A stretch of DNA of 64,000 bases from Staphylococcus phage LY01: the sequence record OR836606.1; one strand, given 5' to 3'. The notes beneath the pieces are model-generated. The model had not been told where the DNA came from, did not search any database, and was given only the letters and a program-made list of their open reading frames with translations. Position numbers and translations under genes: made by a program. The first letter of the stretch is position 1. Every line of letters begins with the position of its first letter. Positions 1 through 27,478 of the stretch are shown here, piece after piece.

Positions 1-1
1 C

Positions 2-1192
2 GCAGGAACTTCTAAAGCCACCGGTCTAGAGACTATTCAAGAAGCTATAGATAGAATACCTAAATATATACCTTATGGAAAAAATTGTTATATTCGAGTC
101 TATGGTAGTTATAATAAAGATGAAAGTCGAGTAGGTATATTTGGATTTAATGGTGGTGGAAGCTTAACTATTGAGTTATGGGAGAAAGCTAGTATAAACA
201 CTAGATTTTATCTAAGAGGTAATAGTTGTTATGTGGCATTTATAGGTACTGATGGTCGAGCTTATAATAAAATTACTGAACCTGATGAAGAATATCCTTA
301 TGTATTCCTTATATCTGGGTGTAGTTATGTTTATATATATAAAATATCTCTAGGGAATTTAGGTACTAGGAGTTCAAACGCTATAGTTTCTTCAGAAGGT
401 TCTAAAGTTCGTATAAGGGATATGATGGTATATAATAGTCATATACCTTTTAAAACAGAGTTAATGGGAAGAATATATTCAGGCGGATTAATTTACGGTA
501 AATCTAAAAGTTATTCTTACATTGCCGAATCTGGCTCATTTATTCATTTATATGGTGAATGTGCTGGCACTTACGGTGGAGTTCCCGAAACTAAATCTGC
601 TCACGGTAGTTCAATACTGAAAGATTCAGGTGTTGTTTTCAATAGTGATAAAGCTGTTACTACTCCACCCGCACCTACTTCTAAGACAGTCACTTCATAT
701 GAAACTAAATCATTCTCAGCTTTAAGTGCAGCTCACTATGTAACTAGTGGTTTCTGGAGTCAATGGAACCCTGGTTATGCAATGGGTGGACGTTGGGGAA
801 CTATGCCTGGTGAGATGGGTATATGGATCTTCCCTTCAACTATGAAATCTACGCTTAAAGGTAAAGATATTACTAAAGTACAGATTACTATAACACGTGT
901 TAATGGTATAGGTTTATGGGCACAAGAAATTTCTGGACAATTAAGAATGCATAAACATACTTCTAAGCCTTCAGGTGCTCCATCATTCTCAAACGAATAT
1001 TATACATTCAAGCTTGTTGGAGGTAAGACTAAGACATTTGATATTACAACTAAGTTTAAATCATTACTTAAATCAGGTTCATATGCTGGTTTTGGTATTA
1101 AATCTCCTTATACACAAAGTTATTATGCGGCTTATTCTAAGACTTGTAAAGTAACAGTAACTTATAAAGTTACTAAGACTGTTTATGTCTAG
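2..1192 (+). CDS. tail fibre/tail spike-like structural protein, 5'-partial (runs off the window start)
   Basis: Frame 2 is open from nt 2 with no stop, so the track ORF at 233 (GTG) is only an internal codon. G/S/T/Y-rich beta-rich composition and position next to a fibre-like gene suggest a fibre/spike. Confidence 0.55.
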   Translation, partial: AGTSKATGLETIQEAIDRIPKYIPYGKNCYIRVYGSYNKDESRVGIFGFNGGGSLTIELWEKASINTRFYLRGNSCYVAFIGTDGRAYNKITEPDEEYPYVFLISGCSYVYIYKISLGNLGTRSSNAIVSSEGSKVRIRDMMVYNSHIPFKTELMGRIYSGGLIYGKSKSYSYIAESGSFIHLYGECAGTYGGVPETKSAHGSSILKDSGVVFNSDKAVTTPPAPTSKTVTSYETKSFSALSAAHYVTSGFWSQWNPGYAMGGRWGTMPGEMGIWIFPSTMKSTLKGKDITKVQITITRVNGIGLWAQEISGQLRMHKHTSKPSGAPSFSNEYYTFKLVGGKTKTFDITTKFKSLLKSGSYAGFGIKSPYTQSYYAAYSKTCKVTVTYKVTKTVYV

Positions 1193-1206
1193 AAAGGTGG
1201 CACATT

Positions 1207-1950
1207 ATGTCTGATTATGAAAATATATATGGAGAACTTGTAGAGACTAATGAAGATGATATTTTAATTAACGAAGATCAATATGTCATTACTACGGACG
1301 GAAAAGAAAATTATACTTCCGTCTATAGTTTTGACGATTATTCAAATACTGTTATTAATAATGATCAAAATTTTGTCGATAATGAAAAAGAAATTATTGA
1401 TGAAGAAGTTAAAGAAGAAATTAAGAATGACGACCCAAGAAATACACATCTTTTAATAGTTTTAAATCCTGAAAGTATGACAGTTTTCCAAATTTCATGT
1501 ATAAATAGAATGACACTTGAGAATAATGTAATGGGTATTGGAGATTATTTTGATGATGAAGAGGAATTTTATGAAATTAATACAATGGATAAAGAATCAT
1601 TTATAGTTGTTGAAAAAGATGATGAGTATAATATAAATACTATTAAACCCGGAACTATTTTAGATCCTAAAATTATGGAAAAAGATGTTTCATATGAATT
1701 CATAGAAGATAATAGAGTCAGTTCTAAAAATGAAGTTGATGATCTCAAGAAAAAACTTGAAGAATCAAATAAAGAATTATTATCTACTAGAGAAGAATTG
1801 ATAGAAACTCAAAAAAGACTGGTCGAATCTGAGAAAAAGGCATTACAGTCTTTAAATTCAGTTAAATATGCTGAAAAGATGAATGTAGATATTACAATGC
1901 AATTATTACAGCTTCAAATGACACTCAATCAAGTCTTAGATGATAATTAA
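1207..1950 (+). CDS. hypothetical acidic coiled-coil protein
   Basis: 247 aa ORF with ATG and an upstream GGTGG/AGG-like RBS. D/E-rich N-terminal half, heptad-like C-terminal half. Confidence 0.6.
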   Translation: MSDYENIYGELVETNEDDILINEDQYVITTDGKENYTSVYSFDDYSNTVINNDQNFVDNEKEIIDEEVKEEIKNDDPRNTHLLIVLNPESMTVFQISCINRMTLENNVMGIGDYFDDEEEFYEINTMDKESFIVVEKDDEYNINTIKPGTILDPKIMEKDVSYEFIEDNRVSSKNEVDDLKKKLEESNKELLSTREELIETQKRLVESEKKALQSLNSVKYAEKMNVDITMQLLQLQMTLNQVLDDN

Positions 1951-1987
1951 AACATTAGTTTATAAATTAAAAAGGAGTGTTTTTAAT

Positions 1988-2326
1988 ATGCCATATTTTG
2001 TTTTAGATCCTCGTTCTTACATGGTAATTTATCATGCAGGACTTGTTGTTAAAGGTACTATCACTTTAGATGAAGTTACTGAAATAATGGGATTAAGAAA
2101 ATACGTTATTGAAGTTTTAGAAGAAATGGGTTATAATTTCGAATCAGGTAAAATCGAAGAAACTGAAGTTTTAGAAGAAATTGATCCTATTGAAGCGGAA
2201 CATATGGTTGATGAAGCTGTAGAAGATTCAGAAGTTCAAGGGATCGGACGAGCTACAGAAGTAGACCCTCAAGAAGAAGACCTTGAAAATCCTTCATCAG
2301 CTCAAGGCGGAACTTTGCCGCATTAG
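1988..2326 (+). CDS. hypothetical acidic protein
   Basis: ATG at 1988 has AAAAGGAG 11 nt upstream. The track start at 1940 is a non-ATG codon. The stop is immediately followed by the repeat element. Confidence 0.55.
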   Translation: MPYFVLDPRSYMVIYHAGLVVKGTITLDEVTEIMGLRKYVIEVLEEMGYNFESGKIEETEVLEEIDPIEAEHMVDEAVEDSEVQGIGRATEVDPQEEDLENPSSAQGGTLPH

Positions 2327-3976: not shown

Positions 3977-4513
3977 AAATTGAAAAAAAATTTAAAAATT
4001 GGTAAAGATAAATATATTAATGTATTACTTAGATTTAAAAATAAAGCGTGGACAGCAGCTTTATTAATTCAATTAGTCAACGTAACTATTTTCTTAATTC
4101 GTGCTTTTGGTGGAGAAGTTTCTGGTGATACTGAAACTAATATTTTAAGTATCGTACAAGTTTTAGCAGGTGTCTTATCTAGTTTAGTTGGTCGTTTTGT
4201 AGATAGTACAACTGAAGGTTTAGCTGACTCTGAACGTAACTTAGTTAAAAGTAGTCCTACTACAAATAGTGAAAAATCCCTTCAAGCAATGGACTATGAC
4301 GGTAAAATTCTCCCTCCAGTGAAGCCTTTTTTGGAGCAAGAGAGCAACCAAGAAACTACAAACTTACCAAAGGGTCTAGAAACTTTCGATAATGAATATT
4401 TAGAACATCAAGTTTTTGTGGAAGATGATGAAGGATTAATTGAATCAGTTGTTAGAGCTGATGCTAACTACAATCCTGAAATTTTAGGTGGAGGATCCGG
4501 CGGTGATCTTTAA
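3977..4513 (+). CDS. small 2-TM membrane protein (holin-like candidate)
   Basis: TTG at 3977 sits 8 nt after AAAGGAG, and the nearby upstream ATG hits a stop after 3 codons. Two hydrophobic helices then an acidic tail. The stop is followed by repeat copy 2. Confidence 0.5.
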   Translation, partial: KLKKNLKIGKDKYINVLLRFKNKAWTAALLIQLVNVTIFLIRAFGGEVSGDTETNILSIVQVLAGVLSSLVGRFVDSTTEGLADSERNLVKSSPTTNSEKSLQAMDYDGKILPPVKPFLEQESNQETTNLPKGLETFDNEYLEHQVFVEDDEGLIESVVRADANYNPEILGGGSGGDL

Positions 4514-4526
4514 CGGCAATATTTTT

Positions 4527-4808
4527 ATTAACGTTAAATAACATAACAATTATTAAGTTATAATAACCAAGTAACTTAAATCATAAGGGCGAGCTGAGTC
4601 CTTAGGCGCATAATAGTGTCAACATGGTTCTCTGATGTGAAGCATTTATAAAGATCTTTCTATTAAATTAATAGGAATAACTTTATAAATGAATTGATCT
4701 AAGCTAATGTATCTTAGTACAGAAACCGAAAAATCCAGTTTAAAACTGCTACACAATTTTTAATTATATTGTTGTAAAATGTTTTAAACATTATGAGATT
4801 TTACAGCT
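4527..4808 (+). mobile_element. IStron-derived miniature element, copy 2
   Basis: Same repeat as 2330-2617, identical over the omegaRNA-like part to the tnpB 3' flank. Both flanks carry GGAGGATC(C/T)G..GATC, an imperfect duplication of the 3' end of the preceding gene. Confidence 0.6.
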
Positions 4809-4933
4809 GGAGGATCTGCTGAAGATCAATCAAATTAATATATTTTACGGTAACATTCATTAAATTGAATGTTACCGTTTATTTTATAAAAAATTTTAAT
4901 ATACATATAACGTTATTATTATAAATATACACT

Positions 4934-5596
4934 TTGCTAAAGGAATTGAATAAAAAAATGCCTAAAAAGAAAAAAGAAGTGCCCAAAAAAATATTAAATA
5001 AAATTGAAGAAGTTAAAAATTGTAATATTGAGTATAAAAGTGTAAATGATAATGAAATTATTATTTTTATAGATGGTCATGAAGTTTATCAATATCTTAG
5101 ACATAGAAAAAGCGGAATGAGAACTTATGATCCTTTACACACATATAAAAAAGAATTAAAGAAAAGAATGAAAGAAGAATTAAAAGATAGTTATATAAAG
5201 GATATTATCAAAAATAATTTTGAAAGTCCTATTGAATTTGAATTAATTACAGAAAGAAATCCTTGTAATAATACTGATTCTATAAAGCTTATACTATTTA
5301 AACTTTTAGGATTAATTAAGAGAACAAATACTCCTGATGTTGATAATTTCCAAAAAACTACATTCGATGTTATGAATGAAATGTTTTGGAAAGATGATGC
5401 ACAGATATTTAAAGTAACTTCTCTTAAAAAATACTCTAGTGATTTCAAAGATAAAACATTTATACATATCAAATATGTAAAAGATGATCTAGAAGAATCT
5501 AAAGGTAGAATGAATAAAGTATTATTAAATAAATATAAATTATTAATAGAAAAAATAAAAGAGAAAAGAATGGAGAATAATAACAATGAGAAATAA
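4934..5596 (+). CDS. hypothetical protein
   Basis: 220 aa ORF, lysine-rich, no recognisable motif. Confidence 0.55.
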   Translation: MLKELNKKMPKKKKEVPKKILNKIEEVKNCNIEYKSVNDNEIIIFIDGHEVYQYLRHRKSGMRTYDPLHTYKKELKKRMKEELKDSYIKDIIKNNFESPIEFELITERNPCNNTDSIKLILFKLLGLIKRTNTPDVDNFQKTTFDVMNEMFWKDDAQIFKVTSLKKYSSDFKDKTFIHIKYVKDDLEESKGRMNKVLLNKYKLLIEKIKEKRMENNNNEK

Positions 5597-27324: not shown

Positions 27325-27478
27325 AGATTGAAGGGTTCTTTTCATTAGACTATATCATTATCTTTTACTAAGATATATACTATTTAGTCGTTGAACAACT
27401 TATATTAAGTTGATGCTGATTAATTTTAATAAATCTTTTCAGCAATTAAGTATTATTAATTCATTAATATATTACTAT
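27325..27478 (-). ncRNA. group I intron (mini-intron family) splitting the RNAP beta-prime gene
   Basis: On the minus strand: P TTAATTGCTGAAA (27440-27449 rc), Q AATCAGCATC (27412-27422 rc), R GTTCAACGACTAAA (27383-27397 rc), S GATATAGTCT (27347-27356 rc). Exon 1 frame stops inside the intron. A splice after ...GCGLI-U gives an in-frame beta-prime. Confidence 0.7.

Follow-up and report, generated by a model that had tools for sequence, protein, structure and literature searches.

Non-autonomous IS200/IS605 elements, as described by Meers et al. in 2023, reportedly keep a guide RNA and use TnpB in trans. Like the mini elements analysed here, they are said to be short and multicopy and to have both ends and a guide RNA, no protein gene and different guides, but they reportedly differ in their tyrosine/HUH TnpA, their T-rich motif, their location in bacterial chromosomes and the lack of a target duplication. 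A comparable arrangement is found in phages and islands that integrate in tRNA genes, where the inserted DNA rebuilds the 3' end of the target, the gene remains functional and the original end is displaced downstream.

Group B IStrons (CboIStron, Clostridium botulinum; bioRxiv 10.1101/2023.11.20.567912; PMC4227781) have the layout of group I intron, tnpB and guide-RNA scaffold that is shared by the parent of the elements described here. They are also alike in that the 5' exon ends in a G that is paired with C, that the motif and the right end have their last two bases in common and differ at position -3, and that the guide is taken from the 3' flank. In CboIStron, TGGG is set against TCGG with discrimination at -3, and the G at the end of the 5' exon is paired to C (bioRxiv 10.1101/2023.11.20.567912; PMC13565253). 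IS607-family IStrons without tnpA are common (bioRxiv 10.1101/2023.11.20.567912; Tourasse et al. 2014, PMC4227781), and BcISt1 of emetic Bacillus cereus has ORF-less, internally deleted, non-autonomous variants that, like the element at the centre of this work, keep both ends (Tourasse 2014, PMC4227781). Those variants retain the ribozyme and splice, whereas our element has done the opposite, keeping the guide-RNA scaffold and losing the ribozyme.

A role of TnpB as a homing nuclease has been published (bioRxiv 10.1101/2023.11.20.567912; PMC13565253). In intronless homing by free-standing phage nucleases such as SegF and SegB, the nuclease cuts the allele of a rival in a mixed infection (PMC13565253), as we propose below. 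In that system the donor allele escapes cutting because the sequence close to the site differs, and markers on either side undergo co-conversion, which fits a mosaic breakpoint that we found beside one of the mini elements. In contrast to the protein-DNA contacts of SegF and SegB, specificity would here come from an RNA guide, and immunity from an element that replaces the motif.

We analysed a 64,000-nt stretch of the genome of Staphylococcus phage LY01 (OR836606.1), hereafter the window, in which a preliminary description had noted two solo mini elements derived from an IStron, and we focused on the second of these (copy 2). Positions 4491-4809 (+ strand) form a 319-bp insertion in the holin gene that has no counterpart in five related Staphylococcus jumbo phages. 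The uninterrupted gene end that had been suggested as a check in related phages is present in MarsHill, S6, SA1, AH12 and Machias (5/5), in all of which the holin end is continuous and the insert is missing. The genomes nearest to the window in the phage collection were S6, MarsHill, Madawaska, PALS_2 and DC4, at ~92% identity. In MarsHill, the unbroken holin end is ...GGTGGAGGATCTGCTGAAGATCAATCAAATTAA, which encodes GGGSAEDQSN* (also written ...EILGGGSAEDQSN*), and the sequence across the empty site runs ...CCTGAAATCTTAGGTGGAGGATCTGCTGAAGATCAATCAAATTAA and then into a terminator hairpin. The left junction in the window reads ...TTAGGTG GAGGATCCGGCGGTGATC TTTAACGG... and the right junction ...GAGATTTTACAGCTG GAGGATCTGCTGAAGATCAATCAAATTAA. 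Read against MarsHill, these junctions therefore define the insertion as 4491-4809 (319 nt), with the native gene end from 4810 on, and excising this segment would yield the MarsHill sequence exactly.

The holin gene as now read (3980-4513, + strand) encodes 177 aa ending in ...EILGGGSGGDL*, matches Pfam Phage_holin_1 (E 1.2e-8) and is a homologue of MarsHill_047, annotated as 'holin'. Near its end lies the transposon-adjacent motif GGTG (4487-4490), of which TG (4489-4490) is the junction or 'core' dinucleotide that recurs at the right end. The inserted DNA, on the same strand, begins with an 18-nt diverged, in-register copy of the protospacer (4491-4508; GAGGATCCGGCGGTGATC vs GAGGATCTGCTGAAGATC), which we call A' and which encodes the new C-terminus G-G-S-G-G-D. 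It is followed by a left-end remnant (4509-4583) that is homologous to the first ~85 nt of a full IStron and provides an in-frame TAA at 4511-4513, by what is left of the end of tnpB, its final codons and stop (4584-4605; AAGGGCGAGCTGAGTCCTTAG, cf. TTGGGGAAGGTTAATCCCTAG; from alignment and sequence reading) and by a complete tnpB-3' RNA scaffold (4624-4809), an omega-RNA-like right end that closes with ...ACAGC TG, the core being 4808-4809. The displaced native holin end ...GGSAEDQSN* (4810-4838, stop at 4836-4838) is identical to MarsHill; the guide is predicted to be its initial ~20 nt (4810-4829). A terminator scan placed the native holin terminator hairpin, which is an annotated terminator in MarsHill, at 4847-4878 (+), now 3' of the element. 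Because this terminator lies downstream of copy 2, the element is inside the holin transcription unit.

The duplication of the holin 3' end that had been described is thus real, and the sequences indicate that the downstream copy is the original, displaced one, and that the upstream copy, now the translated one, is new and has diverged. The insertion had also been placed exactly at a stop codon; this did not survive the comparison with MarsHill, since the insertion point lies 26 nt (8 codons plus 2 nt) 5' of the native stop and the present stop is itself in inserted DNA. It is the insertion that brought a stop codon to this place; the stop codon was not what was targeted. No ORF of at least 40 aa was found in 4514-4933. 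A DDE transposon or MITE is not indicated by the ends, as copy 2 has no terminal inverted repeats (CGGCGG.../...ACAGC) and no exact short target-site duplication: its duplication is 18 nt long, imperfect and bounded by the motif on one side.

A full IStron splits gyrA at 53608-55607 on the minus strand. Its 2,000 bp comprise a group I core, tnpB (53824-55029, 401 aa) and the same RNA scaffold, which is ~98% identical to that of copy 2 over the first 136 columns. With these 2,000 bp taken out, gyrA is exactly restored; relatives read ...TCAGATGGTGATATACCG... across the site. Because the 560 nt located 5' of tnpB carry group I R (GTTCAACGACTA) and S (GATATAGTC) elements, at 55297 and 55172, respectively, the gyrA element is a genuine IStron. 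The left-end TAA that now ends the holin in copy 2 has its counterpart here, where it terminates the gyrA exon-1 ORF at 55602-55600, and its 5' exon end GGUG pairs with the internal guide CACC. The metagenome contig L019, with a 64%-identical TnpB in the same architecture, has the exon end GUAG with the internal guide CUAC. Because these two pairs (GGUG/CACC and GUAG/CUAC) co-vary, the assignment of the splice site and the element boundary is supported. The 5' exon of gyrA (55600-58362, minus strand) also holds an intein (CLTGEH...HN), annotated in MarsHill and Machias too, and gyrA is therefore interrupted by an intein as well as an IStron.

The TnpB of the gyrA IStron contains Pfam OrfB_IS605, Cas12f1-like TNB and HTH domains; the motifs GVDLG, LEDL and DRDVNAA and the zinc-binding CxxC...CxC are legible by eye, and by sequence the protein appears intact. 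It is the only candidate within the window for a predicted partner of the mini elements in trans. The nearest TnpB outside, at 33% identity, is that of Listeria phage LPJP1, where it adjoins an IS607-type serine recombinase, and a tblastn search with this recombinase as query found no tnpA in the 64-kb window. A search for TnpB-related loci returned only ~30%-identical archaeal and actinobacterial matches.

Several other elements of this kind were observed. The only close relative of this tnpB (88.8% aa identity) is in an element of Machias (272146-273715) that has neither the left end nor an intron; it took the place of most of a gene that AH12 still possesses, its right end abuts GATG TG|GATTCC, and it looks like a fixed module of tnpB and guide. 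The metagenome contigs L019-L021 (ERZ27252336 k141_379931, JGI 3300006879 and SRR5699024) carry a complete IStron in which TnpB is 64% identical and ribozyme and scaffold are conserved; the core of this IStron is AG (GTAG|...AACAG|), not TG. The difference points to co-evolution of core dinucleotide, motif and internal guide in the family. In the window, a second tnpB paralogue (62341-63483, minus strand; flanks 62040-63560), intronless and encoding 380 aa at 37% identity, is inserted after TAGGAG at the site of MarsHill gene 221; the flank past its right end keeps ATGACTTTATATGT..., and gene 221 has an internal deletion whose start is ~14-21 nt away from the right end, close to the distance at which TnpB cuts. 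A third TnpB of LY01 (P0009) is encoded outside the window.

The R and S patterns occur ten and nine times, respectively, on the minus strand of the window, with R elements at 27396, 40457, 40658, 40858, 41046, 41931, 50757, 50947, 55297 and 60092 and an S element, (G)ATATAGTC, 28-180 nt downstream of each R element. Because of these ten R elements with S downstream, about ten group I introns appear to be present. Four of the R/S copies, at 40.4-41.05 kb, are spaced only ~200 nt apart, and none of the ten was called by the Rfam gathering scan.

Searching 4400-4950 against the window by blastn confirmed both repeats on which the preliminary description was built: 4516-4811 matched 2320-2620, in copy 1, at 85.5% over 311 columns (E 4e-84), and 4624-4802 matched the tnpB 3' flank at 53807-53616 (minus strand) at 90.6% over 192 columns (E 2e-66). 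An identity of about 150 nt to this flank had been claimed, which is roughly right, although the longest exact run is 87 nt (4624-4710); there are ~3 differences over the first ~136 aligned columns and then a 13-nt gap within a hairpin loop. The right flank after ...GAGATTTTA is indeed CAGCTGGAGGATCTGCTGAAGATC. The string CAGCTGGA at the right junction is common to both minis as stated, but it is a composite of the element end (CAGC), the junction (TG) and native target sequence (GA). Copy 1 is the same mini element in the homologue of gene 050 (2310-2618, + strand; A' at 2310-2327, guide from 2619), for which the MarsHill homologue gives the ancestral sequence ...CAAGGTGGAACTTTACCTAATCAGTAA. 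These two minis were the only ones found: three conserved DNA patterns gave zero matches in viral, genome and metagenome collections and nothing in the plasmid collection.

According to its alignments, copy 2 is an internally deleted derivative of the gyrA-type 2,000-bp IStron in which the full tnpB-3' RNA scaffold has survived together with ~75 nt from the left end and the final ~20 nt of tnpB. The 5' part aligned locally with the full left end over 86 columns, from GGTG on, with z 6.6; an origin of this part in the tnpB 3' coding region was rejected (z ~0). In the consensus fold of the scaffold from five sequences, 10/48 pairs are kept through two-sided changes and every helix is present in copy 2, length differences, including its 13-nt gap, being confined to apical loops. 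The left-end match, the tnpB stop remnant and the near-identical scaffold bear out the earlier reading of copy 2 as a solo IStron derivative, and we consider this identity secure; that it is active is plausible.

Because copy 2 is without a ribozyme and without tnpB, the definition of an IStron does not cover it: it has the end homology, and the ribozyme core, the P1 guide and tnpB are absent. As a guide-RNA element it has a structured scaffold followed by native flank, and a cognate TnpB with catalytic motifs is encoded in the window. Because the ribozyme core is gone, it is no longer an intron, and with both core and tnpB lost, self-splicing is very unlikely. It might nevertheless be argued that the minis continue to be excised from the mRNA, either through a cryptic fold that they form themselves or in trans through the gyrA ribozyme, and that A' is the 5' start of an intron that mimics its 3' exon. 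Such a resemblance of the element start to the 3' flank is formally predicted if P1 extension and P10 compete for one internal guide, the 3' exon is known to affect IStron splicing strongly (PMC13521648), and with ~10 group I cores ribozymes are abundant in this phage. However, no R or S element was found on the + strand of 2310-2618 or 4491-4809 even with loosened patterns, and the exon-binding CACC, which makes the P1 pairing with the 5' exon end, is absent from the minis, its position in the full element corresponding to AAATCA in copy 2. Furthermore, 18 nt far exceeds any P1 extension, the full IStrons, which are the predicted splicers, show no such mimicry, and Rfam matched neither the minis nor the full IStron at gathering or permissive thresholds. 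We thus judge residual splicing to be very improbable.

The motif at the insertion sites rests on four insertions (n=4), namely the two minis, the gyrA IStron and the Machias element compared with AH12. The empty sites are TAGG TG GAGG (holin), AAGG TG GAAC (gene 050), ATGG TG ATAT (gyrA) and GATG TG GATT (AH12), so that the left flanks read AGGTG, AGGTG, TGGTG and TGTG, and the right ends are ...AGCTG or ...AACTG. The left flank and the right end have TG in common and differ at position -3, which is G/T in the flank versus C in the right end, giving the pair (G/T)GTG versus (A/G)CTG. Thus (G/T)GTG precedes all four insertions of the family, which sustains the earlier argument for targeted insertion. 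Compared with IS607 ends, the shared dinucleotide is TG at the four sites and AG in L019, the motif is GTG and not GGG, and the minis have the 18-nt target copy in addition. In sequence terms, the ends appear to follow the logic of IS607 elements and group B IStrons with a TG core, where group B IStrons have a GG core, (A/T)GGG versus CGG.

Under this shared-TG logic, the right end is CTG and the guide of copy 2 therefore starts at 4810, after ...CAGCTG. It had been recognised correctly that copy 2 has a guide of its own, unlike those of copy 1 and the full element, but the start given for it, 4804 after ...TTTTA, was six bases too far to the left. The predicted target of copy 2 is GGTG followed by GAGGATCTGCTGAAGATCAA. 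MarsHill contains targets for all three guides, with TAGGTG plus 20/20 matches (copy 2), AAGGTG plus 20/20 (copy 1) and ATGGTG plus 18/20 (gyrA). S6 has one or two mismatches to the guides (19/20 for copy 2), and SA1 has GGCG or GGAG instead of the GGTG motif, with GGCG at the holin site. No other match to the three guides was found in the window at up to four mismatches. Because the guide sequence of copy 2 in its own genome is preceded by ...GCTG instead of GGTG, the guide is predicted to lack a cleavable self target.

The 18-nt copy at the left junction of the minis was unexpected. Group B IStrons have a ribozyme and tnpB, which copy 2 is without, and we did not find a target copy of this kind described for any IStron in the literature. 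When compared in register, anchored at the TG junctions and evaluated against random window pairs, A' of copy 2 (4491-4508) matches 4810-4827 at 13/18 positions (GAGGATCCGGCGGTGATC vs GAGGATCTGCTGAAGATC; P ~7e-4) and A' of copy 1 matches its own protospacer at 14/18 (GAACTTTGCCGCATTAGT vs GAACTTTACCTAATCAGT; P ~2e-4). The imperfect gene-end repeat that had been noticed upstream is thus more than chance. The same comparison gave 5/18 for the full gyrA IStron, which is the chance level, and ~7/18 for L019 by manual count, so that A' is found in both ribozyme-less copies and in neither full IStron. Past nt 18, both minis continue with TTTAA... and similarity is at chance in the minis and in the full IStron; a similarity between left end and right flank that extends to ~45 nt, or that includes the full element, was accordingly rejected.

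These values also bear on the simplest alternative, in which the ~300 bp are an ordinary conserved intergenic spacer or a chance resemblance and the gene-end repeat is a coincidence. Low-complexity matches are common in a genome of 24% G+C, and a free local alignment of the left end with the right flank was not significant for copy 2 (P 0.43). The in-register test, on the other hand, gave low P values in two independent copies, the segment shares 90% identity with the 3' flank of tnpB, and it is absent from a continuous gene in 5/5 relatives, these empty sites refuting the spacer reading. We give this alternative practically no weight.

Compared with the guides, A' of copy 2 has mismatches at positions 8, 10, 11, 13 and 14 and A' of copy 1 at positions 8, 11, 12 and 15. 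Positions 1-7 and 16-18 are therefore unchanged in both copies, all changes falling within 8-15. In copy 1 the left motif is also changed, to GGCG, a variant that the SA1 allele has too. Third codon positions account for six of the ten changes, and the residues conserved in relatives, GGS in the holin and GTLP in the gene 050 product, are retained. Of the eight changes that start from A or T, seven lead to G or C, in a genome of 24% G+C. Because the 18 nt are a multiple of three and the frame is kept, the left-end TAA ends the holin. In copy 2, A' ends with GGTG directly before ATCTTTAAC and so mimics the boundary between motif and left end of the full element; A' of copy 1 can also be aligned to the left-end start of copy 2. 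The substitute gene end of tRNA-gene integrators is a fixed part of the element, whereas A' differs between the minis and each version matches its own target.

The unchanged positions 1-7 could indicate that A' is a deliberate partial target, consisting of a motif and a 7-nt seed followed by mismatches, that TnpB and its guide bind without cutting, so that read-through from the holin gene into the element is throttled, for example, or TnpB is kept at the left end. The confinement of the changes to positions 8-15 and the intact motif of copy 2 agree with such a role. However, the GGCG motif of copy 1 should prevent binding, positions 1-7 include only two third-codon positions, which makes their conservation not significant, and we found no precedent in the literature on TnpB nucleases. 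A function of this type seems very improbable to us.

Further candidate explanations for A' were considered and set aside. A second TG core used by the recombinase at +18 is not available, as neither target has a TG there. A staggered TnpB cut with fill-in, as in a classic target duplication, has the wrong geometry, because positions 16-21 and not 1-18 would be duplicated. An element-borne guide at a circle junction that directs integration does not agree with A' differing between the copies and fitting in each case its own site only. A stabilising hairpin formed through the A' changes was not supported (z -0.3 to -1.2, about the same as for the ancestral sequence). One minimum-energy fold of copy 2 paired A' with the guide in a long-range helix, which was absent in copy 1.

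We know of no step in IS607 transposition that yields an 18-nt duplication of this kind. ISDra2 TnpB, which is a different TnpB from that of LY01, cuts 15-21 bp from its motif (PMC8612924), and the 18-nt length of A' is inside this range. Because TnpB is the sole activity known to act at ~18 bp, we favour the capture of a TnpB-cut end as the origin of A'.

Putting these features together, we propose that copy 2 is probably a non-autonomous derivative of an IS607-type ('group B-like') IStron that would act as a guide-RNA module for RNA-guided homing or marker exclusion. In this scheme, copy 2 would be transcribed together with the holin gene, and TnpB encoded by the gyrA IStron would bind the transcript and trim it, so that the scaffold and the adjoining ~20 nt of native holin sequence would serve as a guide RNA, one for which LY01 itself would offer nothing to cleave. 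When a rival genome of the MarsHill type is present in a mixed infection, its uninterrupted holin allele would be cut by TnpB, and repair from the element-bearing genome would copy in the element together with its neighbourhood. Because copy 2 cannot splice, a plain insertion would end the holin as ...EILGV*, with the conserved GGS gone. A' between the motif and the left end would restore ...GGGS.. in frame, and its five mismatches to the guide should shield it from cutting. In what is the weakest step of the proposal, A' may have arisen when TnpB cleaved a genome ~18 bp from the motif and the resulting end, still untrimmed, was joined to the left end or primed on it. Selection would then have favoured the in-frame, guide-mismatched version, which could have survived because the element cannot splice. 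Against this origin stand the bias of the changes towards G/C, the constancy of positions 1-7 although changes in the seed would give the best immunity, the GGTG at the end of A' in copy 2, the alternative alignment of A' of copy 1 and the derivation of the 15-21 bp distance from another TnpB. A broader idea, that A' is the regular footprint of a second, transposase-independent route of gene entry for ribozyme-less IStron derivatives, in which target duplication replaces splicing, is one that we put forward as speculative and rather unlikely.

The neighbourhood of copy 1 contains a sharp mosaic breakpoint at ~2245-2260, ~55 nt 5' of the element: window positions 1-2250 are ~90% SA1-like and only ~45% identical to MarsHill/S6, and the sequence to the right is 96-99% MarsHill/S6-like. 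This location is compatible with recombination provoked at the site of copy 1. Breakpoints as a general mark of the elements were rejected, since one was found beside copy 1 only and none at copy 2 or at the gyrA IStron.

The main rival account of A', to which the same breakpoint lends support, is a joint between two parents; A' would then be the native allele of a diverged second phage lineage, with a crossover in or next to the element and a right flank of the MarsHill type. A' diverges mainly at third codon positions and its conserved residues are spared, as would be expected of allelic variation, SA1 has natural GGC-for-GGT alleles, and copy 1 is close to the joint between SA1-like and MarsHill-like sequence. 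Yet neither TCCGGCGGT nor TTGCCGCAT occurs in any sequenced relative, there is no breakpoint at copy 2, and the last ~55 nt 5' of copy 1 are MarsHill-like and not SA1-like. On its own, such a joint also leaves unexplained that both joints lie exactly 18 nt past the core, where no TG core is present. We regard an origin from two parents as unlikely and continue to prefer the captured TnpB-cut end.

Two further patches of divergence were noted. At 2650-2658, three clustered differences from MarsHill/S6 interrupt an otherwise identical 170-nt stretch, changing AACATCAATTGAAT to AACGTTAATTAAAT; the latter resembles the left-end motif AACGTTAAATAAC of the element ~300 nt upstream, and the patch may be a short gene conversion or a protein-binding site. 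The region 49600-51000 is 33-59% identical to MarsHill/S6 and partly SA1-like, has two R/S motif pairs inside and is another mosaic patch, which may be tied to introns.

ORF-less IStron derivatives and guide-only IS200/IS605 derivatives were already known. In the literature we did not find the TG-core motif, a phage setting with three guides aimed at sequenced rivals, or an 18-nt recoded target copy that replaces splicing. In the current view, an IStron strikes a balance between transposition, RNA-guided cutting and splicing, and it is splicing that spares the host. LY01 appears to show the outcome when splicing is abandoned, in that the guide-RNA module persists alone and TnpB is provided from elsewhere in the genome. 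The host gene appears to be spared in a different way, through a recoded version of the cut site that stays in frame. The TG-core variant of the IS607-type motif could serve the engineering of TnpB. Overall, because three guides match rival alleles (20/20, 20/20 and 18/20 in MarsHill), RNA-guided homing or exclusion between jumbo phages would be testable with existing isolates.
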